From contig JBGAOA010000043.1 in NCBI GenBank assembly GCA_044222065.1, positions 1 to 35,265 on the forward strand: a stretch of 35,265 nt of DNA, read 5' to 3'. Below the pieces are notes generated by a model. The model saw only the letters and a program-made list of their open reading frames with translations, ran no database searches and had not been told where the DNA came from. This DNA is from Candidatus Eiseniibacteriota bacterium. GTDB taxonomy: Bacteria; Eisenbacteria; RBG-16-71-46. The number at the start of each line of letters is the position of its first letter. Within the stretch, counting starts at the first letter, position 1. Positions 2,022 through 29,854 of the stretch are shown here, in pieces. The position numbers and the translations under genes are program-made.

Positions 2022-2107
2022 CGACGGAGCGGCGCGCGATCGGATAGGCTGCGGGCGTCGTCGCGCCATCGGCGCGCCGCGACCTTCCCGCGCAGCGGAG
2101 ACCCCCG

Positions 2108-2791: not shown

Positions 2792-2800
2792 GCGACGGCG

Positions 2801-5622: not shown

Positions 5623-5874
5623 GGGGCCATCCTGGCTCGGGGGTTCGACGGCGCGCGCGCGGCGCGGGCAAAGGCGCGCGGCAGTGTAGGGGCTCGACTC
5701 CGGGGCGTCACGGCGCGCTCGCGCGCGGCGCCTCGACCTCGTCTCGAGCCGCACCGTGCGCGGGCGTGTCGCGTCGCCGGATCACGGCGGACCGGCGCGC
5801 GATCGCGTTCGCCCGAGGCGCTCGCAGTCGCCGCGTCCGAACGCATTTTGGGCTCCGTTCCGGCTTCGCGCCGC

Positions 5875-5883
5875 TGCTACAAT
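5875..5883 (+). promoter_or_regulatory. Extended -10 promoter element (TGcTACAAT)
   Basis: TG-n-TACAAT in a locally AT-richer stretch about 80 bp upstream of ATG 5961. Confidence 0.55.
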
Positions 5884-5960
5884 TTCGCGGCCATCTTTCC
5901 CCTTGCCGTCCCCTCCGAGCGAAGGCCGAAGCGCCCGATCGCTCCCTGGAGATCGTTCGC

Positions 5961-8780: not shown

Positions 8781-8801
8781 CGCTGCCGCGCGCCGCGCGG
8801 C

Positions 8802-8827
8802 CGCCGGCGGAGGCGCGTCCGCCGGCG
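8802..8827 (+). other. GC-rich intergenic hairpin between the paralogs
   Basis: CGCCGGCGGA-GGCGCG-TCCGCCGGCG perfect 10-bp stem, no U tract. Confidence 0.4.
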
Positions 8828-8886
8828 ATCGCGCGACGGGCGCGCGGAACGCTCGACGTGCCGCGGCCGCAGGAAGGCGTCCCCCG

Positions 8887-11682: not shown

Positions 11683-11717
11683 GGGCCCGCGCCGGGGTGC
11701 ACGGCGTTGCGCCCCGG

Positions 11718-11726
11718 TGCTAGATT
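11718..11726 (+). promoter_or_regulatory. Extended -10 element (TGcTAGATT), probably giving a leaderless mRNA
   Basis: Ends 9 nt before ATG 11736; no SD sequence between. Confidence 0.5.
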
Positions 11727-11735
11727 CGCGGCGTC

Positions 11736-14120
<2,385 letters not shown>

Positions 14121-14126
14121 ACGCGC

Positions 14127-14159
14127 GCGGGCGGCGCGCGGGATCCGCGCACCGCCCGC
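14127..14159. terminator. Hairpin between convergent genes (probable terminator)
   Basis: GCGGGCGGCGCGCGG-GAT-CCGCGCACCGCCCGC, 15-bp stem with one mismatch (G.U on the minus strand); no U tract. Confidence 0.5.
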
Positions 14160-14175
14160 CGCCGTCGCGACTCCG

Positions 14176-15384
14176 CTACCGCGCCACCGCCCCCATGACC
14201 TCGTCCAGGCAGCGCTCGATCGTGTCCGCGGTGCGCTCGATCTCCTGGTCGAGGCCGATCGAGAAGCGGATCAGCCCTTCGCTCAAGCCCATCGCGAGGC
14301 GTTCCTCGATCGGGATCTCGGACGACGTGCTGTGGCCCGGGGCGCTGAAGAGCGTCTTGAAGTAGCCGAGGCTCACGGCGAGGTAGCCGACCTTCTCCTG
14401 CTGCATGCGCACCATGAGACGGTTCGCGTTCTCGAGCGTGCCGACGTCGAGCGCGAGCATGCCGCCGAAGCCGAAGCCGTGGTTCATGAGCTTGTGCATG
14501 CGGTCGTGGTGCGGATGGTGCGCGAGGCCCGGGTAGTGGACGCGAAGCCCCCGCTTCTCGAAGCGCGCCGCGAGCCGCATGGCGTTGTCGCCGTGGCGGC
14601 GCATGCGGATGTGCAGCGTGTGCAGGTTCTTCAGGATGCTCGCCGCGCGCAGGCTGTCGAGCACCGGACCGAGCAGCATGGACGGTCCCGCGTTCACGTC
14701 GTTGAGCTTCGCGATGAAGTCGTGCGTCGAGACGACGCAGCCCGCGACGCAGTCGCTCGTGCCGTTGATGAACTTCGTCATGCTGTGCACGACGACGTCG
14801 GCGCCGTGACGGAGCGGCGACAGGATCATCGGGCTGAACGTGTTGTCCACGACGAACCGCGCGCCGTGCTCGTGGGCGAGTGCTGCGAGCGCGGGCAGGT
14901 CGGCGACCTCGAGCAGCGGATTGCTGATGCTCTCGGCGTAGATCACGCGCGTCCTCGGCGTGATCGCGGCGCGCACGGCCGCGGCGTCGCTCGTGTCCAC
15001 GAAGCGCGTCGTGATTCCGAAGCGCGGCAGCAGGTTCTTCATGAGCGCGTACGTGCCGCCGTAGATCGTCCTCCCGGCGACGATCTCGTCACCGGCGGAG
15101 CACAGCGCGAGCAGCGTCGTCGAGATCGCGCCCATGCCGGACGCCATCACCTGCGCGCACTCGCCGTCCTCCATGCGCGCGAGCGCGTCGGCGAGGAACT
15201 TGTTCGTGGGGTTCCAGTGGCGCGAGTAGAGGAAGCAGCCCTCGATCTCGTGCTCGAACGACTCGGCCATGCGCTCCGGCGAGAGGAACGTGTAGGTGGA
15301 CGAGTCGGTGATGGACGGATTGACGTCGCCGAACTCCCCGAACACGAGGAAGTCCTGGACGCGGGTCGCAGGGTCGAAGGTCAT
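14176..15384 (-). CDS. PLP-dependent methionine gamma-lyase / Cys-Met metabolism family enzyme
   Basis: YSRHWNPT, ASGMGAI, YGGT, ESISNP, DNTF, HSMTKFING (PLP lysine), AVSLG and IRFSIG; GGAGA RBS. Confidence 0.9.
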   Translation of the reverse strand: MTFDPATRVQDFLVFGEFGDVNPSITDSSTYTFLSPERMAESFEHEIEGCFLYSRHWNPTNKFLADALARMEDGECAQVMASGMGAISTTLLALCSAGDEIVAGRTIYGGTYALMKNLLPRFGITTRFVDTSDAAAVRAAITPRTRVIYAESISNPLLEVADLPALAALAHEHGARFVVDNTFSPMILSPLRHGADVVVHSMTKFINGTSDCVAGCVVSTHDFIAKLNDVNAGPSMLLGPVLDSLRAASILKNLHTLHIRMRRHGDNAMRLAARFEKRGLRVHYPGLAHHPHHDRMHKLMNHGFGFGGMLALDVGTLENANRLMVRMQQEKVGYLAVSLGYFKTLFSAPGHSTSSEIPIEERLAMGLSEGLIRFSIGLDQEIERTADTIERCLDEVMGAVAR

Positions 15385-16317: not shown

Positions 16318-17942
16318 TCAGAAGCGCCAGCTGAGCGCCGCCGTGGCCTGGAAGAGGTCGTTCGTGCCGCCCTGGTCGCGCTCGAACGAGCCGTTCAGGA
16401 ACCAGCGCCGCGCGATCAGCAGATCGCCGTCGGCCCCGTACCAGGTCACGGTCTCGGTGAGGCCCGCCTCGAAGCTCTGCGTCACGCGCCGTCCGGCGTC
16501 CACGCCGACGTTGAGCACCGAGACGGGCTGGGCCGAGAGGCTCATCGTCCACAGCGAGCTGCGCGACGGGTCGCTGTCGTAGAGCGAGAAACGCGAACGC
16601 AGCGAGACCGCGCGGCTCGTGAGTCCGTCCAGCGAACCGCCGACGGACCACGTGTTCGAGCGGTCGCTCTCGCTGCCCGCGCGCAGCCGCATGTCGCCGT
16701 CCAGGTGCAGGTGCCGTCCGAACTCGAGCGCCGAGCCGACCCAGCCGCCGGAGCGGTAGCGGTCGTCGAACTGGGTCGCGGGCGTCTCGCGGTCGCGCCA
16801 CAGCCGCACGTTGCGGCGTGTGTCGTAGCCCGCGCGCAGCGACCACCCCTTCACGACGTCGTAGCGGCCGAACGCGAACGCGCTCGTCGCCTCGAACGCG
16901 CTGTGGCCGGGCTGGCGGCGCCAGCCGCGATACCAGTCGAACTCCTGCGCGACGTACGCCGAACCGCGCTTCGACATCCAGTCCGCCTGGGCGAACAGGA
17001 AGTCGCGGTTCACCTCGCCGCGGTGCGTCGAGGTGACGGCGCCGAGCGTGAACGCCTTGCGGTCCACGCCGTGGTAGGAGCGGGCCGACGCATAGAGCCC
17101 GTGCTGCAGGATCTCGCTCGAGAAGCCGTCCGTTTCGGGATCGGGCTGAGTGCCGCTGAAGAGGCCGCCGGACCAGATGCCCGACGTCGCCTCGGCGAGC
17201 GCGCCGTCGAACACGCTCACGCTCGCGAGCGTCGGCGACACCTGCCGGCCGAGCGTCATGCGCTTGTGGCTCTGCGCGTCGTGCAGCGAGAGCGACGCGC
17301 GATAGATGCGGGTCGAGTTGTCGCTCACGAGGCTGCCGTCGCTCTGCGTGCGCGTGCTGCGCCGTGCGCGCACGTCCACGCCGAAGTCGAGGCCCGAGCC
17401 GCCGAGGTTCACGCCGTCCACGCGCGCGTCCACGGACGGCTGCTTCAGGTCCCCGGCGCCGCCGGCGCCGGCGTCGATCCACAGCATGCGCGCGCCGAGC
17501 CGGCCGCGGATCGGAGCCACGCGCCGCGCGGGGCGAGGCGCCGCGGGCTTCGCCGCGACGAGCACGCGAGCCGTGTCGGGCTTCGCGGCCGAGGCGTTCC
17601 CACGACGTACGAGACGAGGTCGCCGACCGCGGCGGGCTCCACGAGCGCCAGCGTGTCGCACGACGCGCGGTGCGACGACACGAACGTCACCCGCAGCGCG
17701 CCGATCTCGCGACCCTGCCGCATCAGCCGGACGGTGTCGCCTTCGGAGATGCCGTCGAGACTGCCAGCGTCCACGTAGACGGACGCGCCGGTGAGGAACG
17801 AAACCTTCGCGAGCGCCGTGCGGCGCACGAGCTTCGCGAGCGAGTCCGCGTGCGCCGACGGTTCGAGCGGGCGCGCGGCGTGCGCCGGCACGGCGAGCAG
17901 GGCGAGGAGCAGGAACGGCAGCAGGCGTCGCGGCAAGGTCAC
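16318..17942 (-). pseudogene. Outer-membrane beta-barrel protein with N-terminal FlgT-C-like domain, interrupted by a 1-nt frameshift near 17600 (sequence error or true lesion)
   Basis: GTG 17942 overlaps the cytochrome stop and encodes a signal peptide and domain (VTLPRRLLPFLLLALLAVPAHA...GDLVSYVV) in one frame. The barrel (alternating strands, C-terminal ALSWRF) is in another frame. Adding one G to the GGG at 17599-17601 gives a single 541-aa ORF. Confidence 0.8.
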
Positions 17943-20548
17943 ACCCTCGGATGGCACGAATAGCAGGCGGCGCTGTTGTACTGGTAGTTGCGCACGCCGC
18001 CGTGATTGGAGTCCGTCTGGGTCTTGCTGCTGTGCGGATGACACGCCAGGCAGTTGAACTGACGGAAGTCGGTCGCGACCGTGTGGCACTCGATGCAGCG
18101 CGTCCATCGGGCGCGGTGCCGGCCCGAGTAGATGCGGAAGTACTGCGTGTCGTGGTTCCACGTGGACGGCGCCCACGCGGTCGTCGTGTGGCACGACTGG
18201 CACGTGTTCGGGAAGCCGGCCGACGGGTGGTTCGGGTTCGTCGCGGCGTTGTAGTCCGTCTGATGGCACGACACGCACGCCGTGCTCTTGCCGTCGAACA
18301 CGTTGTCCGCGTGGCACGTCATGCACGCGACCGCGACGTGCGCGCCCGTGAGCGGGAACGATGTCGTGTTGTGGTTGAACGACGCGCCGCTCCAGGTCGC
18401 CGTGCCGTGGCAGTTCTGGCACGCGGTCGGGAATCCGGCCGCGACGTGGTTCGGGTTCGTGACGCCGTTGTAGTCCTGCTGGTGGCACGAGACGCACAGC
18501 GTGCTCTTGCCGTTGTAGACGTTGTCCGCGTGGCAGCTGTTGCACGCGAGCGGCACGTGCGCGCCCGTGAGCGGGAACGACGTCGTGGAGTGGTTGAACG
18601 TGCCGCCGACCCACGTCGTCGTGTTGTGGCACGACTGGCAGGCGGTCGAGAACGCGGCCGCGACGTGGTTCGGATTCGTGGCGCCGTTGAAGTCGCTCTG
18701 ATGGCAGGATGCGCACAGCGTGCTCTTGCCGTCGTACACGCCGTCGCCGTGGCAGCTCGAGCACGAGGCGCTCACGTGCGCGCCCGTGAGCGGGAAGCTC
18801 GTCGCGTTGTGATTGAACGACGCCGGACTCCACGCCATCGTCGTGTGGCAGCCCTGGCACGTCGTCGGGAAGCCCGAGTGGCTCGGCGCGGTCGCGCCGT
18901 TGTAGTCGGTCTGGTGGCACGAGACGCACGTCGTGCTCTTGCCGTTGAAGACGTTGTCGCCGTGACAGCTGTTGCACGCGAGCGGCACGTGCGCCCCCGA
19001 GAGCGGGAACGACGTCGTGTTGTGGTTGAACGTGCCGCCGTCCCACGCGGTCGTCGTGTGGCACGTCTGGCAGGCGTTCGAGAAGCCGGCGGCCGTGTGG
19101 TTGGGATTCGTGGCGCCGTTGAAGTCGGTCTGGTGGCACGACGCGCACGCGGTGCTCTTGCCGTTGTAGACGCCGTCGCCGTGGCAGGCGAGGCACGCGG
19201 TCGTGCGGTGCGCGCCCGTCAGCGGGAAGCTCGTTCGCGAGTGGTCGAACGTCGCGCCGCTCCAGTTGATCGTCGAGTGGCAGTCGGCGCAGGTGGTCGG
19301 GAAGCCGGAGTGGCTCGGGTTCGTCGCGCCGCTGTAGTCCGTCTGGTGGCACGACAGGCACGCGGTGCTCTTGCCCGCGAACACGCCGTCGCCGTGGCAG
19401 CTCACGCACGAGGCGCTCGTGTGCGCGCCCGTGAGCGCCCAGCCGGTCGTCGCGTGGTCGAACGACGCGCCCGTCCACGTCGCGGTCGAGTGGCAGCTCT
19501 GGCACGTCACCGGGAACGCCGCCGCCTGGTGGGGCGGATTCGTCGTCGCGTTGTACTCGGTCTGGTGGCACGACGCGCACGCGGCGCTCTTGCCGCGGTA
19601 GACGCCGTCGCCGTGGCAGTCGAGGCAGCGCTGGTTCGCGTGCGCGCCGGTGAGCGGCCAGCCCGTCGTCGCGTGGTCGAACGACGCGCCCGCCCACGAC
19701 GCGGTGCCGTGGCAGTCCTGGCAGGTCATCGGGTAGCCGGCGCCCGTGTGGCTCGGATTCGTCGTGCCGTTGTAGTCGGTCTGATGGCACGAGGCGCACG
19801 CCGTGCTCTTGCCCGCGAACACGCCGTCGCCGTGGCAGCTCTGGCAGGCGGTCGTGCGGTGCGCGCCCGTGAGCGGGAACGCCGTGCGGTTGTGGTCGAA
19901 CTTCGACGTGTTCCACGAGAGCGTGTTGTGGCACGTCTCGCACTCGAGCGGATAGCTGCCGGCCGCGTGATCGGGGTTCTTCGCCGCGTCGTAGTTCGAG
20001 CGGTGGCACGTCACGCACGCCGCGGCCGTGCCGACGAAGCGGTTCTGGCCCTGCGCCGTCGGCTTGTGGCACGACTCGCACTCGATGCCCGCGTGGCTGC
20101 CCGTGAGCGGGAAGCGCGTCGTCTGGTGCGCGCGGACCATCGGGCCGCGCTCGGTGAAGCTCTTGTCCCCGTGGCAGCGCGCGCACTCGGTGCCCAGCTC
20201 GCCGCGGTGCGGGTCCTCGTGGCAGGTCACGCACTGCGTCTTGCTCTGCGCGAAGTCGAGCGAGCCGTGGCACGACAGGCACGGCGTGCCCGCGTGCGCG
20301 CCGCCGAGCGCGAAGCCGTACTTCTCGTGCTTGAAATCGGGGCTGATGCGCGCCGGCTTCCAGCTCTTCGCCGAGTGACAGCTCGCGCACGGTTCCTTGA
20401 TCGGCCCGTGCGGATTCTCGACCCGCGGCTTCAGGGCCGCGACCGACTGCGCGGCGAGCACCGCGAACGGCAGCAGCAGGAGCAGCGCGGCGGCGATTTG
20501 CCGGACGCGCGCGGCGCGGGGCGTGGGGTCAGATCCGGATCGCAGCAC
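17939..20548 (-). CDS. 34-heme c-type cytochrome built from tandem triheme repeats, 869 aa
   Basis: 34 CxxCH motifs counted; Sec signal peptide without lipobox; GAGGTG RBS before GTG 20548. Confidence 0.95.
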   Translation of the reverse strand: MLRSGSDPTPRAARVRQIAAALLLLLPFAVLAAQSVAALKPRVENPHGPIKEPCASCHSAKSWKPARISPDFKHEKYGFALGGAHAGTPCLSCHGSLDFAQSKTQCVTCHEDPHRGELGTECARCHGDKSFTERGPMVRAHQTTRFPLTGSHAGIECESCHKPTAQGQNRFVGTAAACVTCHRSNYDAAKNPDHAAGSYPLECETCHNTLSWNTSKFDHNRTAFPLTGAHRTTACQSCHGDGVFAGKSTACASCHQTDYNGTTNPSHTGAGYPMTCQDCHGTASWAGASFDHATTGWPLTGAHANQRCLDCHGDGVYRGKSAACASCHQTEYNATTNPPHQAAAFPVTCQSCHSTATWTGASFDHATTGWALTGAHTSASCVSCHGDGVFAGKSTACLSCHQTDYSGATNPSHSGFPTTCADCHSTINWSGATFDHSRTSFPLTGAHRTTACLACHGDGVYNGKSTACASCHQTDFNGATNPNHTAAGFSNACQTCHTTTAWDGGTFNHNTTSFPLSGAHVPLACNSCHGDNVFNGKSTTCVSCHQTDYNGATAPSHSGFPTTCQGCHTTMAWSPASFNHNATSFPLTGAHVSASCSSCHGDGVYDGKSTLCASCHQSDFNGATNPNHVAAAFSTACQSCHNTTTWVGGTFNHSTTSFPLTGAHVPLACNSCHADNVYNGKSTLCVSCHQQDYNGVTNPNHVAAGFPTACQNCHGTATWSGASFNHNTTSFPLTGAHVAVACMTCHADNVFDGKSTACVSCHQTDYNAATNPNHPSAGFPNTCQSCHTTTAWAPSTWNHDTQYFRIYSGRHRARWTRCIECHTVATDFRQFNCLACHPHSSKTQTDSNHGGVRNYQYNSAACYSCHPRV
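18161..19900 (-). repeat. Intragenic tandem array of eight 213-219 bp (71-73 aa) triheme units
   Basis: Unit F[DN]H..T.[FW]PLTGAH....CxxCH.D.V..GKST.CxxCHQ.D[YF]N..TNP.H...CxxCH....W; 6x73 + 2x71 aa = 580 aa = 1740 nt. Confidence 0.95.
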
Positions 20549-22421
20549 GGGTCACCTCGTGGACGGAGAGGGGCAGCGGGTGGAGCGTGCCGGCGAGGGC
20601 CGCGAACGAAGCGGCGAACGCACCGGCGGGACGGGGGAAGGAAGGCGCGTAGGCGCCGTCGCCCTCGCGGGGCGTGGTCTTGTGACAGTCTTCGCAGCGC
20701 TTGCCGAGCGGCCGGTAGACGACGCGCGACTTGCCGTTCGGGAGCGTCAGGCTCGGGTGGCAGTCCGCGCACGCGACCTTGAGGTGCGCGCCCTCGAGCT
20801 TGTACGAGGCGCCCTTCACGTGGTCGAAGCGGCTCGCGGGCTTCCACGCGAGCCCGTCGTGACACGACTCGCACACGCCCTTGTCCTTGCGTTCGGCGAA
20901 TTGCTCGCCGTGCGGGCTCTGCGGTCCGTGGCACGCGACGCACGTGCGCTTCGGCTCCTCGAACTTGAGCGCGCGCGCGCCCGCGGTGTCGGCCTTGAGC
21001 GTGCGCGCGCCCGGCACGGCGGCGAGTTCGCCGTGGCACGACTGGCACGGCGTCGCGCGATGCGCGCCATCGAGCGCGAACGCGAACTTCGCGTGCGCCG
21101 TGAGATCCACGCCGGACGGACGGAAGCCGTCGTGCGTGTGGCAGTCGAGACATTCCTTCGCGTGCGGGCGGTTGCCGCCGGGCGAGAAGCGGCCGGCGTG
21201 CGGGTCGCGGTGGCAGTCCACGCACTTCGCGCGCGCCGGGCGCATCGCGACGCGCGCCGTGCCGAGCGTCGCGGCGAGCTTCGATCCGGCGGGCGCCTTC
21301 GAGTGGCACTTCTCGCACGCCGCCGCCGCGTGCTTGCCCTCGAGCGGGTACGGCGTCGTCTGGTGCTGGGCGAGCGTGTAGATCGAGCGTTCGAATCCGG
21401 AGACGTCGTGGCACGCGGCGCAGTCGGCGGGCTTGCCCGCGAGCGTCGCCTGGCCGTTGTGAGCGTCCTTGTGGCAGTCGGTGCACTTCGCGAACAGCGG
21501 CTTCGGCCCCCACGCGGTCTTCTCGTCGTGGCACTTCTCGCACGCGACACCCTGGTGCTTGCCGCGCAGCGGGTAGCGCGTCTGGTCGTGGTTGAAGCCC
21601 GTCGACTTGATGCGGTGGAAGTCGTCCGTCACGTGGCAGCTCGCGCACGCGCCCTTGAAGCGGCCCGCGTGCGGGTCCTTGTGACAGTTCACGCAGTCCG
21701 CGTGCGGCAGCGGCTTCCACAGCGGCACGGGCTGGCCCTTCGCGTCGAGCGGCCGGCCGAGCGCCGCCGCCGCGTGGCACTTCGCGCACTCGACCTTCGC
21801 GTGCTTGCCCGTGAGCGGGAACTTCGTCTTCGCGTGGTCGAACTCCTTCTGCGCCGAGGACCAGTCCACGAACGTGTGGCACTGGAGGCAGTCCTTGCCG
21901 AGCTGCCCCTGGTGCGGGTCGCCGTGGCACGACTCGCAGTTCGTCTCGAGTCCGAGCCACGACTTCGCGCGGTCCTTCTTGCGGATGAGCTTCACGACCG
22001 CCGACTTCTGGTTCTTCGGCGCGTGGCACTTCTCGCACGCGAGCTTCGCGTGAGCGTCCTTCAGCTCGTAGCCGGTCTCGAGGTGATCGAACTTCTCCTT
22101 CGATCCCGCGTCCCACTTCACGAGCTGGAAGTCGCGCCCGGCGTGGTCCGGGTGGCACTTCGCGCAATCGCGCTTCGCCTTCGAGGCGTGGTAGCCGCGC
22201 TTCGCCGTCAGCATGCCCGCGATCTCCGTGTGGCAGTCGAGGCAGCGCTGGTCCATCGCGCCGGCGCCGCCGCGCGAATGGCACTGCAGGCACTTCGTCT
22301 GCGCGTCGAGTTCGGCGTGCGGGGCGCTGAGCGGACCCGGTGAGAGCTGGGCGCGTGCGGCGCCGGGTGCGCCGGCGAGGAGCAGCAGCAGGAGGAGGGC
22401 GCGCGCATGCCGGGGCCTCAC
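20529..22421 (-). CDS. 20-heme c-type cytochrome, Lys-rich, probably periplasmic, 630 aa
   Basis: 20 CxxCH motifs counted; signal peptide ending AARA followed by QLSPGPLS..H; FDH..T.[FY]PL.GKH repeats; GTG overlaps the upstream TGA. Confidence 0.95.
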   Translation of the reverse strand: MRPRHARALLLLLLLAGAPGAARAQLSPGPLSAPHAELDAQTKCLQCHSRGGAGAMDQRCLDCHTEIAGMLTAKRGYHASKAKRDCAKCHPDHAGRDFQLVKWDAGSKEKFDHLETGYELKDAHAKLACEKCHAPKNQKSAVVKLIRKKDRAKSWLGLETNCESCHGDPHQGQLGKDCLQCHTFVDWSSAQKEFDHAKTKFPLTGKHAKVECAKCHAAAALGRPLDAKGQPVPLWKPLPHADCVNCHKDPHAGRFKGACASCHVTDDFHRIKSTGFNHDQTRYPLRGKHQGVACEKCHDEKTAWGPKPLFAKCTDCHKDAHNGQATLAGKPADCAACHDVSGFERSIYTLAQHQTTPYPLEGKHAAAACEKCHSKAPAGSKLAATLGTARVAMRPARAKCVDCHRDPHAGRFSPGGNRPHAKECLDCHTHDGFRPSGVDLTAHAKFAFALDGAHRATPCQSCHGELAAVPGARTLKADTAGARALKFEEPKRTCVACHGPQSPHGEQFAERKDKGVCESCHDGLAWKPASRFDHVKGASYKLEGAHLKVACADCHPSLTLPNGKSRVVYRPLGKRCEDCHKTTPREGDGAYAPSFPRPAGAFAASFAALAGTLHPLPLSVHEVTRAAIRI

Positions 22422-23854
22422 GTCTCGGCCCCGGCCGCAGCGCGCGACTCCGTCGCGATCGCGATTTCCTTTCGCACGATGCGGATCCCGAGGCGTTGGA
22501 GGAATGGGGTCGGCGCTTCACCGCCGATGCGCACGATCACGGCGTCGTTCTGCAGCACGTGGAGGGCGCCCTGGTACTCGAGGACGACGACGTCCTCGCG
22601 GATTTCCTTCACCTGGCTCTCGAGCAGCAGGTGCACGGTCTTGTTCTGCACCGCCTCGTCGAGCTTCTTGCGGTTGCGCTCCTTCGCGCGGCTGAAATCC
22701 GTGCCGCGATAGGACAGCACGACGTGCGTGCCCTCCTGGTTCGCGAGCCCGAGCGCGGACTCGATCGCGCTGTCGCCGCCGCCGACCACGACGACGCGCT
22801 GTCCCTCGAACGCCTCCATCTCGACGATGTCGTAGAGCACCTTGTCGAGGTGCTCGCCCGGGACGCCGAGCTTGCGCGGGGTGCCGCGGCGGCCCATCGC
22901 GAGCACGACGCGGCGGCCGTGCCACGAATGGCCCGTGTCGCACGTGAGCTCGAACACGTCGCCGGGGCGCTCGATCTTGACGACGCGCTCGCCGGTGCGG
23001 ACGTGCAGGCCGGTCTCCTGGATCACCTTCGTCCAGACCGCGAGCAGCTCTTCCTTCGTGCCGTCGGCGATCCACAGGTCGCCGTACATCGGCACGCGGA
23101 TCGGCTCGGCGAACAGCAGCTTCTTGCGCGGGTACTTGCGGATCGTGTCCGACAGCGAGCCCTGCTCGACGACCATGTAGGACAGCCCGCACTGGTGCGC
23201 CTCGAGTCCGGCGCTGATGCCGGCGGGGCCCGAGCCGACGATCAGCACGTCGAACACGTCGAGCCTCCCGTCGCTGCGCGGCTGGTGCGGCGGCAGCTCC
23301 TTCGCGACGTGCTCGATCGCGAGCCGCCCTTCGTTCACCGCGTTCTTGATGAGGCCGCGGCCGCCGAGCTCGCCGACGACGTAGAGCCCCGGCACGTTCG
23401 ATTCGAAGTTCACGTTGACGTGCGGCACCTCGACCCGCTGCACCGACGCGCCGCTCGTGAGCGCGATGCCGCCGACCGGGCAGGCCGCGACGCACGAGCC
23501 CGCGCCCTCGCAGCGCTCGGTGTTCACGACCGCGAGCTTGTGCACCATCTGGATCGCGCCCGGGTGCGGGCACGCGTCCACGCACGTGCCGCAGCCGACG
23601 CACATGTCGGCGCGCACGATCGCGTGCAGCTTCTCGCCGGCATCGGGGGTGTCCTCGACGATCTTCGCCGCGACGATCTCGAACGCCTGCAGCGGCGCGC
23701 CGCACTCGGTGCAGATCTCGGTGCCCTGCAGCAGCGTCGCGCTGCAGCGCGGGCACGCCACGCTCCGGATCGGCGCCTCGGCGGACTTCTTGCGCACCTG
23801 GAGCACGACGAAAAGCGTCGTCAGCACGAAGAAAGCGATCGTCGTGTAGAGCAT
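22418..23854 (-). CDS. Membrane-anchored zinc-ribbon + dicluster ferredoxin + thioredoxin-reductase-like FAD/NAD(P)H oxidoreductase
   Basis: N-terminal TM; CPRC..CTEC; CVGCGTCVDACP and CEGAGSCVAACP; SNVPGLYVVGE; IVGSGPAG; VVLAMG; VVGGGDSA; TAGGAG RBS. Confidence 0.9.
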   Translation of the reverse strand: MLYTTIAFFVLTTLFVVLQVRKKSAEAPIRSVACPRCSATLLQGTEICTECGAPLQAFEIVAAKIVEDTPDAGEKLHAIVRADMCVGCGTCVDACPHPGAIQMVHKLAVVNTERCEGAGSCVAACPVGGIALTSGASVQRVEVPHVNVNFESNVPGLYVVGELGGRGLIKNAVNEGRLAIEHVAKELPPHQPRSDGRLDVFDVLIVGSGPAGISAGLEAHQCGLSYMVVEQGSLSDTIRKYPRKKLLFAEPIRVPMYGDLWIADGTKEELLAVWTKVIQETGLHVRTGERVVKIERPGDVFELTCDTGHSWHGRRVVLAMGRRGTPRKLGVPGEHLDKVLYDIVEMEAFEGQRVVVVGGGDSAIESALGLANQEGTHVVLSYRGTDFSRAKERNRKKLDEAVQNKTVHLLLESQVKEIREDVVVLEYQGALHVLQNDAVIVRIGGEAPTPFLQRLGIRIVRKEIAIATESRAAAGAET

Positions 23855-23869
23855 GGCGCGGGCGTTCTC

Positions 23870-24808
23870 CTACATCCCGACCGCGCCGACCCACAGCGCG
23901 ACGACGACGTGGATGAGCACCGCGAGCAGCGCGGTGATCGAGAACGGCCGGTGGGCGACGTGCCACAGGGCGAACACCTTGCGCGTGCCCTCGAGCATGC
24001 GGGCCTGCTGGTGCAGCGCGATCTCGCGCCGCGCGAGCCGCAGCACTTCGCGCAGCGTCTCGCCGCTGATCGGCGAGGGGCCCGAGCGCCGCGACGTCAG
24101 GTGGCCGCGCAGCGCTGCGATCGCGCGCCGGCGGCGGAGGTCGTCCGAGACGAGGCGGCGCACGGTGCCGAGCAGGCCGAGCCCCGCATACGTGCGCGTG
24201 TCCGGCGCGAGCACCTTCTCGATCTCGCGCGGGTCGAATCCGGTCGCGGCCGCGATGCGCGTGATGAGCGCCCGCCGCTCGCCGGCCGTTTCCTCGGCGG
24301 TCAGTTCGGCGCCGTCACGGCCGCGCGGGATGTGCGTGTAGAGGTAGCGTCCGACGAGCCCGCTCAGCGACACGACGAACATGGACAGGTAGCCGAGCCC
24401 GATGAGCCCGTCGAAGCGCCAGCTCGCGTGCACCGCGACGATCAGCGGAATGAGCAGACCGACGACGCTGTGCACCTGGATCCACGCGCCAACCGGCCCC
24501 GTCCACGACAGCCAGCTGAACTTGCGCCGCAGCGGGTAGAGCCACATGAACACGAACAGGCCGAACCCGATGAAGCCGAGCGCGAGTCCGAGCGGCCCCG
24601 AGGACTTGAGAGCGGGATGCAGGTCGGAGCGCAGCCGGGCCGCGCGATCGAGCAGGTAATAGGGCAGCCCGAAGGCCGTGATCGCCGCGGGGATCGAGAA
24701 CACCACGAAGATCGCGATGGCCCTGAAACCCGGCAATTTGAAAGCGGTACGGCGGACCTCGGGGGCGCCGAGGATGTCGGTCGTGGACGTCAATTGTGCA
24801 TCCTGCAA
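23870..24808 (-). CDS. Integral membrane protein with TM histidines (ferric-reductase / cytochrome b-like)
   Basis: About 5 hydrophobic helices; WIQVH, AVHAS, SGLVGRYLY, WHVAHRPF and LIHVV; start codon uncertain (TTG 24808). Confidence 0.75.
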   Translation of the reverse strand: MQDAQLTSTTDILGAPEVRRTAFKLPGFRAIAIFVVFSIPAAITAFGLPYYLLDRAARLRSDLHPALKSSGPLGLALGFIGFGLFVFMWLYPLRRKFSWLSWTGPVGAWIQVHSVVGLLIPLIVAVHASWRFDGLIGLGYLSMFVVSLSGLVGRYLYTHIPRGRDGAELTAEETAGERRALITRIAAATGFDPREIEKVLAPDTRTYAGLGLLGTVRRLVSDDLRRRRAIAALRGHLTSRRSGPSPISGETLREVLRLARREIALHQQARMLEGTRKVFALWHVAHRPFSITALLAVLIHVVVALWVGAVGM

Positions 24809-24887
24809 GAAAGAGGACGGCGAAACGCGCGGAAGACCTGCGGAATCAGGGAAATCCCGTAGGCCGAGCGTGGTTGCCGCTACATCG

Positions 24888-24902
24888 GCAAGGTCGGTGC
24901 CA
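24888..24902 (-). promoter_or_regulatory. Sigma-54 (-24/-12) promoter of the cytochrome operon
   Basis: Minus strand reads (C)TGGCAC-CGACC-TTGC, matching TGGCAC-N5-TTGC, about 80 bp upstream of the first gene. Confidence 0.8.
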
Positions 24903-25098
24903 GAGGTTTAGGCGAGATACACCGCCTGGGGCCGGGCGCTTCACTTCGGTCGTGAAAACCGCTGAAACGCCTTGCGGGCCGGAGAGACTGCGTGGGGCGG
25001 GGAGAGTACCGGAACGAGGTCGCAGCACGAGAGAGAAATCGCGTTTGGGGCGCGACGGGCGCGAACCCTCGGCCCCGCGCGCACTGCGCTCCGCGCGT

Positions 25099-25127
25099 TT
25101 GCCGCCCCCGAGGGGCGCGGCTATTCT
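25099..25127 (+). promoter_or_regulatory. Sigma-70-type promoter of arginase, probably leaderless
   Basis: TTGCCG-17 bp-TATTCT, ending 9 nt before ATG 25137; no SD. Confidence 0.65.
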
Positions 25128-25136
25128 GCGCCGCCC

Positions 25137-26057
25137 ATGGCCACCAAGAAGCGGAACATCGAAATCATCGGCATCCCCGTCGACCTCGGCGCCGGACGGC
25201 GCGGGGTGGACATGGGGCCGTCCGCGATCCGAATCGCCGACCTCGAGCCGCGGCTCGAGGCGCTCGGCCACAAGGTCGTGGACTTCGGCGACATCGACGT
25301 GATGATCGCCGAGACGCAGAAGGTCGGCGCGACCAAGCTGCGCTACAAGGCGCCCATCCTGGCCGCGTGCGAGGAGCTTCGGAAGCAGGTCGAGCGCAGC
25401 CTCGGGGAGACCCGGCTGCCGCTCGTGCTCGGCGGCGACCACTCGATCGCGATCGGCTCGGTCGCGGGCTCGAGCAACCACCACGCGCGCCAGAACGAGA
25501 GCATCGGCCTCATCTGGTTCGACGCCCACGGCGATGCGAACACGCCCGAGACGACGCCGAGCGGCAACATCCACGGCATGTCGCTCGCCGTGTCGCTCGG
25601 CCTCGGCGATCCGGATCTCGTGAACCTGGGCGGCCGCGCGCCCAAGGTGCACCCGAGCAACACCGTGCTGATCGGCGCCCGCGATCTCGACCCGGGCGAG
25701 CGCACGACGCTCAAGAAGAGCGGCGTCACGGTGTACACCATGCGCGACATCGACGAGCGCGGCATGAAGGAAGTCGTGGACGAGGCGATGGCGATCGCGA
25801 GCGACGGCACGGCGGGCATCCACCTGTCGTTCGACCTCGACGTCGTGGACCCCGAAGACGCGCCGGGAACCGGAACGCCGGTGTGGGGCGGCATCACGTA
25901 TCGCGAGGCGCATCTCGCGATGGAGCTGCTCTCGGACCGCGCGACGATCATCGCCGTGGATCTCGTCGAGGTGAATCCGGTCATCGACAGCCAGAACATG
26001 ACCGGGATCCTCGCGGCCGAACTCGCGCAGAGCGTGCTCGGCAAGCGCATCCTGTAG
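25137..26057 (+). CDS. rocF: Arginase
   Basis: GVDMGPSAIR, GGDHS, DAHGD, TPSGNIHGM, SFDLDVVDP and VEVNP Mn-binding motifs; start ATG 25137. Confidence 0.95.
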   Translation: MATKKRNIEIIGIPVDLGAGRRGVDMGPSAIRIADLEPRLEALGHKVVDFGDIDVMIAETQKVGATKLRYKAPILAACEELRKQVERSLGETRLPLVLGGDHSIAIGSVAGSSNHHARQNESIGLIWFDAHGDANTPETTPSGNIHGMSLAVSLGLGDPDLVNLGGRAPKVHPSNTVLIGARDLDPGERTTLKKSGVTVYTMRDIDERGMKEVVDEAMAIASDGTAGIHLSFDLDVVDPEDAPGTGTPVWGGITYREAHLAMELLSDRATIIAVDLVEVNPVIDSQNMTGILAAELAQSVLGKRIL

Positions 26058-26088
26058 CGCGGCCGCAGCGCCGCGAACCGGAGGGGCC

Positions 26089-26559
26089 GTGGGCCGCCGG
26101 CACGTCGTTCGACTCGTCGTCCTGCTCGTCTTCGCCCTGATCGGGCTGCTGTACCGCTCGGTCACGCACGTGCCGGCGCCGCCGCGCGAGGCCGGAACGA
26201 CGGCCACGCCGGCGCCGCGCGCCGAACCGCCCGCCACGGCAGCGCCGATCTCGCATTCCGAGATCGGATTCCGTTCGGACGAGCGCCTGCGCGAGCACTT
26301 CGAGAAGCACGGCGCCGAGTTCGGCGCCGCGAGCGCCGCCGACTACCTCGCGCGCGCGCAGGCGCTGCGCGACGCGCCCGCGGGCGGCGACGTGCTCGAA
26401 GAGACGCGCGCCGACGGCGTCACGTGCCGCTTCGACCGCGCGAGCGGGGCGTTCCTCGCGTTCGATCGCGATCTCGTGATCCGCACGTACTTCCGCCCGA
26501 ACGACGGCGAGCGCTACTTCCGCCGCCAGCTCGAACGCGAGCACCGGTCCGGGCGATGA
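26089..26559 (+). CDS. Membrane-anchored/exported protein with a domain resembling BECR-fold RNase toxins
   Basis: GGAGG RBS, N-terminal TM, Pro/Ala/Thr linker, HFEKHGAEFG...DYL...FD...F......IRTYFRP pattern. Family assignment is from memory. Confidence 0.55.
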   Translation: MGRRHVVRLVVLLVFALIGLLYRSVTHVPAPPREAGTTATPAPRAEPPATAAPISHSEIGFRSDERLREHFEKHGAEFGAASAADYLARAQALRDAPAGGDVLEETRADGVTCRFDRASGAFLAFDRDLVIRTYFRPNDGERYFRRQLEREHRSGR

Positions 26560-26966
26560 ACGACCGCGAGGAATCCGTCCGGGAGTTCCTGCGCCGCCGC
26601 GGCGCCCCCGACACGGTCGTCGCGCGCGGCCTCGAGGGCCTCGTCGAGCAGTGGAGCCGGACGGCGCGCGCGCTCGAGCGCGGCTACGCGTACGGGCTCG
26701 ACGACTACCTGAACGACCTCGACGCGCGCCAGCTCATCGAGGAGGCGCTCGAGTTCGCGGCGCTGCACGAGATCGAGCGAGTGCGCGAGGCGCTCGAGGC
26801 GGCCGACGCGATGGCGCGCGCGGCGCTCGAGCCGAGCGCGCGCTGCGTGTGGGGCGAGGGCTCGGCGCGCTACCACGGCTGGTCGGCGGAGCGGAACTGG
26901 TGGTACTTCGCCGTGCCGAAGCACCCGGGCGAGGACCTCGCCGCGGAGCTGCGCGAACGGTCGTAG
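26556..26966 (+). CDS. Small acidic hypothetical protein, possible immunity-like partner
   Basis: ATG overlaps the upstream TGA (ATGA); 136 aa with GYAYGLDDYLNDLDAR and WWYFAVP. Confidence 0.65.
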   Translation: MNDREESVREFLRRRGAPDTVVARGLEGLVEQWSRTARALERGYAYGLDDYLNDLDARQLIEEALEFAALHEIERVREALEAADAMARAALEPSARCVWGEGSARYHGWSAERNWWYFAVPKHPGEDLAAELRERS

Positions 26967-26973
26967 GCGCGCG

Positions 26974-27840
26974 CTACCTCGCTCCGCCCTCCAGCCGGTC
27001 GAGCGCGCGCTTCACCATCGCCTGCACGCGCTCGTCGCCGGGGTGCGCGGCGCGCACCGTCTCGAGCCGCACGCGTCCCGAGTCGACCTGTCCGAGCGCG
27101 GCGTAGGCGCGCGCGGCGATCGAGGCGCGGCGCAGCTCGAAGCGCACGTTGTCCTTCGGTCCCTCGAGCGCGTCCGCGGCGAGCAGCGCGCCGCGCGCGT
27201 CCCCGAGGTCCTCGAGGCGCGACTCGACGCTCAGGAACTTCACGTCGGCGTCTTCGGGATGCTCGCGTGCGAGTTCCGCGACCCAGCGCGCGGCGTCCTC
27301 CTTCGCACCCGCGTCGCGGGCCTGCATCGCGTTGTGGTAGAGCGCGGCGTTCATCAGGTGTCCGAGATCGGCGGGGTCGCCCGAACGCAGGCCGACGCCG
27401 CCCGCGTAGGAGTACACGAGCTTGCCGCCCGCTTCGCCCGCGGCGTACACGCGCGTCACCGCGAACAGGCCGACCGCGGCCGCGAGCACGCGCGCTGCGG
27501 CCGCCGCCTTCGGCCAGCGCAGGAGCGCGAGCGCCGCCAGTTCCACCGCGCCGAGCACGAACAGCCACTGGTGCGCGGACTCGCCGGCCTCTTCGTGCTC
27601 CTGCACCGCCTCGCGCGCGCCGGGCACGCGCTCCGCCGGACCGTGCGCCGCGAATCCCGACTTCGCCGCCGGATACGACGCGACCGCTGCGATCAGCAGC
27701 AGCGTCGCCGCCATCGGCCCGAGGAACGTCACGCGTCCGCCGGTCGGGACGAGCGACAGCACGCGCGCGGCGACGCCGACGACGGACAGCGCGACGACGA
27801 AATGGACGAGCTGCGGATGGAACGGAGCGAGGTCTGGCAC
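26974..27840 (-). CDS. DUF2231-like membrane protein with C-terminal TPR-like helices
   Basis: GGGAGG RBS before GTG 27840; FHPQLVHF motif, four TMs, EHEEAG, GGKLVY..GVG, helical tail. Confidence 0.75.
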   Translation of the reverse strand: MPDLAPFHPQLVHFVVALSVVGVAARVLSLVPTGGRVTFLGPMAATLLLIAAVASYPAAKSGFAAHGPAERVPGAREAVQEHEEAGESAHQWLFVLGAVELAALALLRWPKAAAAARVLAAAVGLFAVTRVYAAGEAGGKLVYSYAGGVGLRSGDPADLGHLMNAALYHNAMQARDAGAKEDAARWVAELAREHPEDADVKFLSVESRLEDLGDARGALLAADALEGPKDNVRFELRRASIAARAYAALGQVDSGRVRLETVRAAHPGDERVQAMVKRALDRLEGGAR

Positions 27841-27878
27841 GGTGCCTCCCGGAGCGAGACGGACGGCGATGCGGCGGA

Positions 27879-29606
27879 TCAGGGATCTTCGATGCGGGCG
27901 TCGGCCGCGAGCCTGCGGATCGCGGCGCGGAGCTTCCGGTGCGCGTCGAAGCGGCGCACGAACTCGGATTCGCGCCGTCCGCCCTTCGCGCGGATGACGG
28001 CGGCGAGCGCCTTCCGTTCGGCCGCGCTCCAGCGTTCGGCGCCGAGCAGCGGCACGATCGTGCTCCAGCGCCGCCACCACAGGCGTTCGCCCGCGCCGAA
28101 GCCCGCGAACGAGCGCACGCCGAGGAGCCGCCCGGCCTCGCGCGCGCACTCGCGCTCGGCGCGTGCGCGGTCGCCGCCGAAGCGCGTCGCGACGAGGCGT
28201 GTCGCGTGCAGGCCGATGCGGCCGAGCGCGAGCACGGCGAGCACGTCGCGCCGCTCGCGGCCGCGGAACCAGAACAGGTTCGTGCTCGCGAGCCGCTCGA
28301 GCCGCGCGCGCGGCGTGCGGTGGCGCGGGTCGCGCTCGAGCCGCGCCAGCTCCTCGCGCATGAGCGCGCGCGTCGCGGGATCGAGCGGGCGGAAGCCGGT
28401 CTTCTGGTAGAACCACCACGCGCCCGAGTCGAGCGCTTCGTCGTTGTGGTAGCCGAGCTGGTAGGGGTCGATCGTGAAGACGGTCGAGCCGAACAGCGCG
28501 TGCACCATGGACAGCACGCGGCCGTACACGCGCCCCGCCTCGGCGCCGCGCCAGGTCTCGAACACGTTGTAGGCGACCTCGGACGAGCCGAACAGCCCGC
28601 TCGCGAGCACGTAGCCGATCGGTACGCCGTGACGCAGCGTGAGCATCGCGTACACGGACTCGAGCGCGAGCCGGCGCTCGGGCCGCACGCCGAAGCACGC
28701 GAACTGCAGCCCGTCGCCGCACTCGACGAGCCGCGCGTCGTCCGGGTCGCCGTAGGCGAACGCGTCGAGGTCGCGGCTGCGCGTCACCATCGCGGCGCGC
28801 GCGAGGTCGAGCAGCGCCTCGCCGTCCGCGCGCGACAGGTCGCGCCACGCGAGCGGCGGGCGGCGGAGTTCGCGCGCGACGTCCGGCCGGCTGCGGTCGA
28901 GCGGGGTCCGGCGCGGCGCGAACGCCGGCGCGAGGTGCTCGGGCGCGGCGTCGAGCGTGCGCGACGGCGTCGCGGCGCCGCGGCCGTCCAGCACGAGCGG
29001 CGCGTCGAGTTCGTCCCACAGCGCGTCGCGCACCGCCGCGTCCACCGGCAGCTGCGAGAACGCGCGCACGAGGAACGCGGCGTCGGTCTCCGCGGGCGAC
29101 CTCAGCCGGTCGACCCAGCCGCGCACGCCGAGGTCGAACTCGTCCACGCCCGGCGCCTCGCCGCCCTGCACGAGGAGCGGCAGGAACGTGTTCAGCCGCT
29201 CGGCGTTCTCGAACGCCTTCCAGTCCACGCGGAGCCGCGGCCCGAAGCGCGCGGCGAGCCAGCGCGCGGTCGGCGCGAAGAAGCGGAAGCGCACGTCGGC
29301 GCCGGCGATGCCGCTGTCCTCGAGTGCCGCGCGGTGGCGCGCGAAGTCGCGCCGCGCCGGGAAGCGCGCGAGCGCCTCGTAGGCGACGGCGCGGGTCGCG
29401 AGGTCGTCCGGGTAGGCGAGCAGGAACAGCAGCGTGTCGTGGAAGGCGAGCACCTGCGCCGCGCTCGCGAGCCGCGCGCGATCGAGCGCGCGCACGAGCG
29501 CGCGCTTGCGCTCGGCCGCGCCGTCGCCGAAGCGGCCGCGCAGCTCGACGAGCGCCTTGAGCGCCGCCGCCGCCGTCGCGCGCCGCGCGCGTTCAGCTGC
29601 GGCCAT
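27879..29606 (-). CDS. Hypothetical protein, 575 aa, with GNAT-like motif in the C-terminal half
   Basis: Long ORF with G/C-rich third positions; LLFLLAYP, IDPYQLG and GAWWFYQKTGFRP; overlaps the upstream gene. Confidence 0.75.
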   Translation of the reverse strand: MAAAERARRATAAAALKALVELRGRFGDGAAERKRALVRALDRARLASAAQVLAFHDTLLFLLAYPDDLATRAVAYEALARFPARRDFARHRAALEDSGIAGADVRFRFFAPTARWLAARFGPRLRVDWKAFENAERLNTFLPLLVQGGEAPGVDEFDLGVRGWVDRLRSPAETDAAFLVRAFSQLPVDAAVRDALWDELDAPLVLDGRGAATPSRTLDAAPEHLAPAFAPRRTPLDRSRPDVARELRRPPLAWRDLSRADGEALLDLARAAMVTRSRDLDAFAYGDPDDARLVECGDGLQFACFGVRPERRLALESVYAMLTLRHGVPIGYVLASGLFGSSEVAYNVFETWRGAEAGRVYGRVLSMVHALFGSTVFTIDPYQLGYHNDEALDSGAWWFYQKTGFRPLDPATRALMREELARLERDPRHRTPRARLERLASTNLFWFRGRERRDVLAVLALGRIGLHATRLVATRFGGDRARAERECAREAGRLLGVRSFAGFGAGERLWWRRWSTIVPLLGAERWSAAERKALAAVIRAKGGRRESEFVRRFDAHRKLRAAIRRLAADARIEDP

Positions 29607-29838
29607 CGGCCGGCGGCTCCTCGTCGCCGCGCCACGCGTCTTCGATCGGCGTCCAGCCGTCGCCCGGCAGCAGCACGTCGGCGTGCCCCGTGATGCGATC
29701 GATGCGCACGGGGTAGGTCTCGCCGCTCACCGTGACGTGGTCCCAGCGCCAGCGCGTCGGCCACACGTACGCGAAGCACGCGCCGGCGAGCAGCGCGCAC
29801 AGCACGATCGCGAGGACGAGGAGGCGGCCGAGCTTCAT
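29593..29838 (-). CDS. Small membrane-anchored hypothetical protein, 81 aa
   Basis: N-terminal hydrophobic helix, then WPTRWRWD...PVRIDRITG; fills the gap in an operon-like run. Confidence 0.65.
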   Translation of the reverse strand: MKLGRLLVLAIVLCALLAGACFAYVWPTRWRWDHVTVSGETYPVRIDRITGHADVLLPGDGWTPIEDAWRGDEEPPADGRS

Positions 29839-29854
29839 CGCGCGCGTACGGTGG

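Follow-up and report, generated by a model that had tools for sequence, protein, structure and literature searches.

A PCC3-type cluster with a built-in flavoprotein in Candidatus Eiseniibacteriota: a candidate route for electrons from NADPH to the cell surface

The 35,265-nucleotide stretch of contig JBGAOA010000043.1 analysed here (Candidatus Eiseniibacteriota bacterium, assembly GCA_044222065.1; hereafter the window, meaning this whole stretch) contains a run of five minus-strand open reading frames (ORFs) that encode an inner-membrane protein (IMP), a flavoprotein, a 20-heme and a 34-heme cytochrome c, and an outer-membrane β-barrel (Table 1). Judged by sequence, four of these genes are a cluster of the published PCC3 type, and the fifth, the flavoprotein, is the new part. 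A sequence-only reading of this DNA had described a co-oriented five-gene set in an envelope-like order with 54 c-hemes, and our analysis confirms it: the genes follow one another in the order given, joined by a 15-bp gap (23855–23869), two GTGA overlaps (22418–22421 and 17939–17942) and a 20-nt overlap (20529–20548), and the two cytochromes contain 20 + 34 CxxCH motifs. The arrangement is conserved. Relatives with an IMP match number 22, of which 20 loci were fetched and 11 span the whole cluster; 10 of these 11 carry all five genes in the window order, which therefore does not reflect chance, and the remaining one lacks the second cytochrome. Shorter conduits also exist, without the 34-heme-type cytochrome at locus L024 and without the 20-heme type at L036. 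The closest named homologs come from Candidatus Eisenbacteria, and the window DNA is present in sludge, biofilm and bioreactor metagenome runs.

Table 1. Features of the five-gene cluster, in window coordinates.
Feature	Coordinates	Strand	Description
IMP	23870..24808	-	312 aa (TTG 24808) or 307 aa (TTG 24793); five helices, N-terminus predicted inside
Flavoprotein	22418..23854	-	478 aa; membrane anchor, zinc ribbon, two-cluster ferredoxin, permuted YpdA/TrxR-type FAD/NADP(H) fold
20-heme cytochrome c	20529..22421	-	630 aa; signal peptide, basic (15% K+R), predicted periplasmic
34-heme repeat cytochrome c	17939..20548	-	869 aa; signal peptide, predicted outward-facing wire
Outer-membrane β-barrel gene	16318..17942	-	541 aa if intact; signal peptide, small β domain, linker, ~22 strands
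One-base gap shifting the barrel frame	17596..17597		X2 and X3 contigs carry one extra base

The IMP starts at 24808 or, more likely, at 24793, as in a 307-aa database call, and not near 24902 as first described; nor is it His-rich, with nine His among 312 residues. It consists of five hydrophobic helices by hydropathy, modeled with a predicted local distance difference test (pLDDT) score of 90.2, and a predicted cytoplasmic helical insert of ~115 aa separates helices 4 and 5. Helices 3 and 5 carry WX3HX13H motifs and helix 4 an SGLVG motif; both His motifs are kept in 92 of 93 homologs and SGxxG in 88 of 93. The four histidines (H113, H127, H286 and H300) are invariant in 110/110 aligned homologs, all of which display the paired His on helices 3 and 5 that is typical of the FRD superfamily. 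Lys and Arg concentrate in loops 2 (5.5) and 4 (2.8), a bias that suggests an N-terminus on the inside and one His pair by each membrane face. We predict that the IMP holds two b hemes, with H113/H286 near the cytoplasm and H127/H300 near the periplasm. Pfam gave no hit on the window IMP, an IMP profile search returned no solved relative, and atlas searches provided no family name for the IMP and only generic families for the flavoprotein.

The flavoprotein contains Pfam Fer4 and Pyr_redox_3 domains, in agreement with the earlier call of an iron-sulfur/flavin enzyme. The best solved relative of its flavin domain is Bdr/YpdA (7a7b, E 5e-48), followed by thioredoxin reductase (TrxR) and TrxR-type ferredoxin:NADP+ reductase (FNR), and scores against the curated families fall below cut-off for both TrxR (76 vs 343 bits) and YpdA (168 vs 340 bits). 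The fold is circularly permuted, with the segment that ends YpdA-like proteins standing ahead of the GxGxxG motif, and at the CxxC region (res. 341–347) no Cys is among the commonest residues of 81 flavoprotein sequences. The cluster cysteines number seven, not eight as previously counted; six are invariant in 81 orthologs, position 88 is C, S or T (44/30/6), and ligand position 118 is His in 79/81 orthologs and Ala in the window. R383 (81/81), R389 (77/81) and K391 (79/81) form what we take, from knowledge of TrxR, to be the NADP 2'-phosphate site, and we read the protein as an NADP(H)-specific one-electron transferase. Its N-terminal anchor is followed by basic residues, with a Tat-like motif in 0/16 sequences. 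A zinc ribbon (res. 34–55) sits between anchor and ferredoxin in 15 of the 16 sequences of the close alignment and is missing from the Emticicia and L036 proteins; it is peculiar to this lineage. A paralog family of ~760–900 aa fuses a permuted TrxR-type flavin domain to a membrane iron-sulfur domain, both in the window's own genome (G000:C32:26492-28765), where we take the membrane domain to be NapH/NosR-like, and elsewhere (L044 9932–12286, L083, L085, L087, L089 and L090). A Pseudoalteromonas paralog of the permuted flavin domain lies among glycosyltransferase genes.

Of the two cytochromes, the 20-heme protein aligns with intact 21-, 24- and 27-heme proteins of betaproteobacterial PCC3 at 28–33% identity (~200–240 bits). 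The 34-heme protein is composed of 42% T/S/A/G, with 25.6 aa per heme. Across relatives, the outer cytochrome ranges from 13 to 63 hemes and the inner one from 20 to 23. Single-ORF outer cytochromes with 61–63 hemes occur at L031, L080, L127, L131, L132 and L165.

In the window, the barrel gene is interrupted, a point missed by the sequence-only reading: the frame opened by GTG 17942 encodes 165 aa and stops at 17445, and the barrel proper is encoded in another frame. An additional base follows 17596 in contigs of X2 and X3, which come from two studies, and restoring it yields a single stop-free frame of 541 aa that scores 692 bits on the family profile. X1 and X17 have no contig with the extra base, but the long pieces listed for them do not span this position. 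In relatives, the barrel occupies one ORF in 11/11 whole-cluster loci. An assembly error is the most likely cause of the break, because X2 and X3 carry the base, the restored frame is whole and the relatives are intact; a rare strain variant is possible. A programmed frameshift or a pseudogene was rejected in view of the two other assemblies and the whole genes of all relatives. The earlier assignment of the last gene as a barrel holds for the L024 ortholog, whose model (pLDDT 73.4) has 22 strands counted in residues 147–540, while the window copy itself is frameshifted. Fold searches with this model retrieve many outer-membrane barrels with no match standing out, among them MtrB (6r2q_B; Z 13.1, root-mean-square deviation (rmsd) 4.8, 332 aligned), and NCBIfam gave no match for the barrel. 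The barrel profile aligns with 17 betaproteobacterial PCC3 porins (hhalign 98.6%, E 6e-16), as compared with 0.2% for a PCC4-type control.

PCC3, as described by He et al. 2017 (PMC5566968), is made up of a porin, two cytochromes (one extracellular, one periplasmic) and a five-helix IMP. The extracellular cytochrome has a median of 34 hemes, is rich in T/S/A/G and spans 22–39 aa per heme; the periplasmic one has a median of 21; and the IMP, of ~300 aa, contains two WX3HX13H motifs and SGXXG, the ferric-reductase-like character of its His motifs having already been pointed out in the same paper. The window displays these features, the extracellular position of its second cytochrome being a prediction: a barrel, cytochromes of 20 and 34 hemes, and a five-helix IMP with the motifs. 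In a quick tree of 93 rows (support 89, long outgroup branch), the window IMP falls together with the IMPs of betaproteobacterial PCC3 and separately from those of PCC4-like type. An IMP profile matched 47/351 genomes of one betaproteobacterial order, and the top 24 matches have the PCC3 layout, with periplasmic cytochromes of 21, 24 or 27 hemes, the counts given for Gallionellaceae PCC3 (PMC10734462). The reference PCC3 clusters of Sideroxydans ES-1 are Slit_0867–0870 and Slit_1446–1449. The sequence-only reading knew of no characterised example, and our literature search found none; the module itself is known, since four of the five genes match a published cluster.

The flavoprotein follows the IMP across genomes. 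Among 61 genomes (own plus relatives; thresholds E<1e-95 for the flavoprotein and E<1e-29 for the IMP), flavoprotein orthologs occur in 21, all of them among the 22 with an IMP, and the sole IMP genome without one is 82% complete, with its IMP at a contig end. In the 351 betaproteobacterial genomes, 24 full-length flavoproteins and 24 top-tier IMPs fall in the same 23 genomes, and one more, split flavoprotein copy lies in a genome without an IMP match. Here the flavoprotein is the divergent upstream neighbour of the cluster in 22 of 23 fetched loci and lies ~7 kb past the porin in the other one; the divergent placement may be why it was overlooked. We found no text linking the flavoprotein to PCC3 in a literature search that most subscription journals and figures fell outside, and no match for Slit_0866 in main texts.

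A second sample consisted of loci from named organisms, which were anchored on the flavoprotein because a scan of named genomes with a single IMP found no match and the divergence within the wide IMP alignment was too great for such a scan. A tblastn search of plasmids with the IMP likewise found no match, though an Emticicia plasmid carries one. This sample comprises at least 80 loci, of which 54 were examined, and the gene counts that follow are among the matches listed. Flavoprotein orthologs account for 43 of the 54; many of these 43 loci are incomplete at their ends, and 39 have an IMP, 32 a barrel gene, and 26 the IMP, barrel and two cytochromes together. When only ortholog loci of at least 19 kb are considered, the IMP is present in 22/22 and the IMP, barrel and two cytochromes in 20/22. 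The 11 examined loci of other TrxR-like proteins lack the IMP, the barrel and two cytochromes throughout (0/11). By record labels, at least 12 phyla have flavoprotein and IMP together, in several gene orders. On plasmid pEMTOL02 of Emticicia oligotrophica DSM 17448, all five genes stand in the window order behind ccsA, with EMTOL_RS21090/21095 as IMP and flavoprotein.

In Planctomycetota, anchor, ferredoxin, flavin domain and IMP are fused into a single ORF (L075, L079, L082, L084 and L086), in loci ordered IMP, cytochrome, barrel, cytochrome. The fusion puts the flavin domain on the N-terminal side of the IMP, which, from the Lys/Arg bias, would be the inside. Co-occurrence, adjacency through rearrangements and fusion together make a flavoprotein-to-IMP link well supported by genomes. 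The earlier proposal that an NAD(P)H enzyme couples to a b-heme protein gains from this link, while the module, being PCC3, was already known. At L102 (394–11158), the IMP, a 24-heme cytochrome and the flavoprotein stand head-to-head with a 4-heme cytochrome, two genes, a barrel-like gene and an 11-heme cytochrome, a Uet-like set, and the IMP module may serve a different outer conduit there.

Data from Sideroxydans ES-1 bear on the same link. Slit_0866, a 430-aa FAD oxidoreductase in published proteome tables (PMC12016527), adjoins the PCC3 cluster Slit_0867–0870, and its five peptides fit betaproteobacterial flavoprotein orthologs best (mean of 35.6/49 residues vs 22.4 for other TrxR-like proteins). 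Slit_0525 is a second copy with the permuted motif, giving two flavoproteins for the two ES-1 PCC3 clusters. On late fresh and aged magnetite relative to Fe-citrate, log2 changes are +2.35 and +2.55 for Slit_0866, values that rest on four unique peptides, and +1.22 and +1.76 for Slit_0525, which falls to -2.03 on early aged magnetite and is unchanged in three of six comparisons. For both PCC3 clusters, transcript levels are reduced on Fe(II) when compared with thiosulfate (PMC8788666), and the extracellular cytochrome Slit_1448 is undetected in ES-1 proteomes (PMC11429942). A co-variation of Slit_0525 with Slit_1446 (rho 0.88, 24 proteome samples) was rejected as evidence because an unrelated neighbour reaches 0.84.

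Our analysis suggests, with a probability of about one half, that the window holds a PCC3-family cluster whose IMP is fed directly by NADPH via a dedicated flavoprotein and passes electrons outward to the surface; the data show the gene content, the motifs, the predicted folds and the linkage and fusion of flavoprotein and IMP, while heme binding, flavoprotein-IMP contact, direction, quinone-independence and every transfer step are parts that we infer. The anchored, cytoplasmic flavoprotein would oxidise NADPH at its FAD, and its two iron-sulfur clusters would split the electron pair into singles, which would pass the inner membrane via two bis-His b hemes, as in NOX and ferric reductases. The 20-heme protein would then bridge the periplasm, and the barrel-held 34-heme protein would present electrons outside. 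Outward flow from NADPH is downhill in both redox potential and membrane potential. Because such a wire would use up membrane potential instead of generating it, it would be neither energy-conserving respiration nor an Fe(II) oxidase; its role would be that of a redox valve, or of a strong extracellular reductant acting on metal oxides, humics, partner cells or electrodes. A precedent for a cytosolic reductase feeding a membrane heme exists in FRD proteins, including Fre/MsrQ and STEAP, a family in which two redox centres join the reductase with an outside acceptor (PMC12525009). The lower PCC3 transcripts on Fe(II) in ES-1 are in line with the outward direction. A complex prediction with IMP, flavoprotein, two hemes and FAD scored 0.01 and counts neither way. 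We extend the proposal to the family as a whole only tentatively: PCC3 could be a five-part, quinone-free NADPH-to-outside wire, with a NOX-like engine and a cable of 50–80 hemes, in at least 12 phyla, flowing outward even in iron oxidisers.

Several observations weigh against this proposal. Ferric_reduct (PF01794) is found in only 27/110 IMP homologs, weakly (best E 1.5e-4), and Ni_hydr_CYTB is matched by 25/110, all weakly. Fold searches with the IMP model gave nothing above background and no FRD row; the best heme-binding row, superoxide oxidase CybB (5oc0; Z 7.3, rmsd 3.6, 134 aligned), lies within background, and CybB reacts with quinone. The absence of a match is compatible with an FRD or a cytochrome b fold. 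The NapH-like domain fused to the paralog flavin domain in the own genome is of a type that is presumably quinol-linked, and MsrQ, the nearest analogue, binds ubiquinone too (PMC12525009). The 34-heme protein scores ~200–320 bits against periplasmic and ~85–165 against outer betaproteobacterial cytochromes, and its outside location is only predicted because it is closer to the former. The five fusion records belong to one clade and so represent one event, and kin are not independent, so the linkage counts are no statistical test. In ES-1, Slit_0525 is located far from any PCC3, the proteins of the cluster adjoining Slit_0866 are largely undetected, and the rise of both flavoproteins on late magnetite fits uptake as well (PMC12016527).

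These points feed three other explanations. An unlikely one links the system to quinone, with flavoprotein and IMP forming an NADPH:quinone entry, or the IMP serving both the flavoprotein and the pool, and quinol feeding the wire. A quinone-active cytochrome b with a link to the quinone pool is what PMC5566968 proposed for the PCC3 IMP, and the ubiquinone bound by MsrQ, the weak Ni_hydr_CYTB matches and the reasoning that a neutral quinol shuttle would spare membrane potential all favour it; it leaves unexplained, however, why 24/24 top-tier IMP copies have a dedicated flavoprotein and why the two are fused, and the measured MsrQ potentials speak against ubiquinone as donor. Inward uptake is clearly improbable: electrons drawn from Fe(II) minerals, from metal or from a cathode would travel along the wire to NADP+, with the flavoprotein as a ferredoxin:NADP+ reductase for carbon fixation. 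Such flow would be uphill in redox, would oppose the membrane potential and would, by our estimate, require donors near -0.45 V, and Bacteroidota and Gemmatimonadota, known as heterotrophs, are among the lineages in which the cluster is common. Inward flow is favoured by the TrxR-type FNRs found among the flavin domain's solved relatives, by PCC3 being common in iron oxidisers (PMC10734462) and by the rise of Slit_0866 and Slit_0525 on late magnetite; against it stand the drop of ES-1 PCC3 transcripts on Fe(II), the fall or flat response of Slit_0525 elsewhere and the few peptides behind Slit_0866.

It is very improbable that there is no outward wire at all and that periplasmic or barrel-bound multihemes form an NADPH-charged store, or supply reductant for repairing the envelope, taking up metal or removing oxidants. 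Either cytochrome may be missing, as at L024 and L036, hemoproteins are smaller in sister PCC4-like clusters, Slit_1448 goes undetected and many PCC3 hosts are not known metal reducers (PMC5566968); yet the barrel is kept in every whole locus of the relatives and most named ortholog loci, and the wide heme range of the outer cytochrome, next to the narrow one of the inner, is expected of a free-standing outer wire.

The genes flanking the cluster (876–15384 and 24972–31831) are ordinary (pyrophosphatase, FlgD-Ig β-propeller, P-type ATPase, Cys/Met pyridoxal phosphate enzyme, arginase, S9 peptidase). A sequence scan found no promoter-like sites at the cluster and no excess of terminators. Short contigs of the RNA run X17 lie inside all five genes and, without a silent-region control, were not taken as transcription. 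The own genome encodes further multiheme proteins on contigs C35, C72, C75, C78 and C89, including a run of 8-, 13-, 5-, 19-, 18-, 9- and 10-heme ORFs on C35 and a 42-heme ORF on C89 with neighbours of 6 and 9 hemes, and CcmF-like maturation genes on C58 and C89. Cytochrome c maturation genes adjoin the cluster in Emticicia (ccsA), a Hyphomicrobium and a betaproteobacterium (L043 7896–10982, L069 and L102).

To our knowledge, the characterised porin-cytochrome conduits draw on quinol. PCC3 is widely cited as a candidate quinone-linked iron oxidase, yet it is down-regulated on Fe(II) in ES-1. A dedicated NADP-type flavoprotein, matched one-to-one with PCC3, would revise the PCC3 model and predicts outward flow, and this reaches the whole family, not only the window. 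The known range of PCC3 now also takes in Eisenbacteria, Bacteroidota, Acidobacteriota, Gemmatimonadota and Planctomycetota from sludge, soil and sediment. If the proposal holds, membrane-potential-aided electrons would leave the cell below the quinol potential, enough for crystalline iron oxides, sulfur and methanogen partners, and bioelectrochemistry would gain a direct NADPH-to-electrode part. Cultured hosts exist in E. oligotrophica DSM 17448, with the five genes on a plasmid, and in Sideroxydans ES-1, which makes the flavoproteins, and either the single-chain Planctomycetota fusion or the two membrane proteins make the question directly testable in vitro.

Comparison with known systems places the window closest to PCC3, which is in print as a predicted conduit (bioRxiv 10.1101/2025.02.27.639646; PMC13386937). 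As published, PCC3 is a proteobacterial set of four genes, interpreted by a quinone-linked model, whereas the window has the flavoprotein inside the operon; our locus comparison shows that proteobacterial PCC3 has it too, usually as a divergent gene. The window barrel, at 541 aa, is shorter than PCC3 porins of ~730–900 aa. The sister ptd/PCC4 cluster (ptdABCDEFG) has been described (bioRxiv 10.1101/2023.11.21.568154) as encoding an FAD/NAD(P) oxidoreductase, a 4Fe-4S protein and a ferric-reductase-like protein together with a porin and multihemes. In a single cluster it joins, as the window does, a porin, multihemes, an IMP with the same motifs, the oxidoreductase and a 2x4Fe-4S protein. It differs in its 4-, 5- and 10-heme cytochromes, as against 20 + 34 hemes, in its unpermuted flavin fold and in a cNMP domain, which Pfam did not find in the window proteins. 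Its barrel is unrelated to that of the window by the hhalign control above, and PCC4-like IMPs sit on a separate long branch. In our genomes, 19/21 second-tier, PCC4-like IMP copies are accompanied by a ~790–830-aa TrxR-like protein, and Table S6 of He et al. places IMPs beside redox proteins of 608–805 aa. The accessible part of the ptd preprint contains no NADPH-direct mechanism for ptd/PCC4.

The FRD superfamily (NOX/SpNOX, STEAP and MsrQ with Fre) shares the principle of a cytosolic NAD(P)H flavoenzyme that feeds a membrane partner whose His residues are paired across two helices, and both fused (STEAP) and two-component (Fre/MsrQ) forms exist (PMC12525009). The window IMP has five helices rather than the six of NOX/FRD, its partner combines a TrxR fold with a ferredoxin in place of an FNR-type/Fre domain, and its output, unlike that of FRD systems, is a multiheme wire; FRD homology is weakly detected. 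Bdr/YpdA and TrxR-type FNRs, the closest solved relatives of the flavin domain, likewise lack CxxC, and the window flavoprotein departs from Bdr/YpdA in being circularly permuted, ferredoxin-fused and membrane-anchored. A porin-cytochrome layout is common to the window, MtrCAB/CymA and Geobacter Pcc with ImcH/CbcL; unlike these two, the window cluster has no quinol-oxidising c-type cytochrome, and the Mtr comparison suggested by the sequence-only reading yielded no family-level match (DmsE model 40–66 bits vs a cut-off of 192). Among large cytochromes, a Lentimicrobium 61+20-heme cluster, described as differing from every characterised module (PMC13013709), is similar to L080 in its heme counts, and giant cytochromes are described in sludge Bacteroidota (PMC11495043). 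The module is thus already known in kind, with PCC3 published and its sister PCC4/ptd built of similar parts, and what is new is the tie of the flavoprotein to PCC3.

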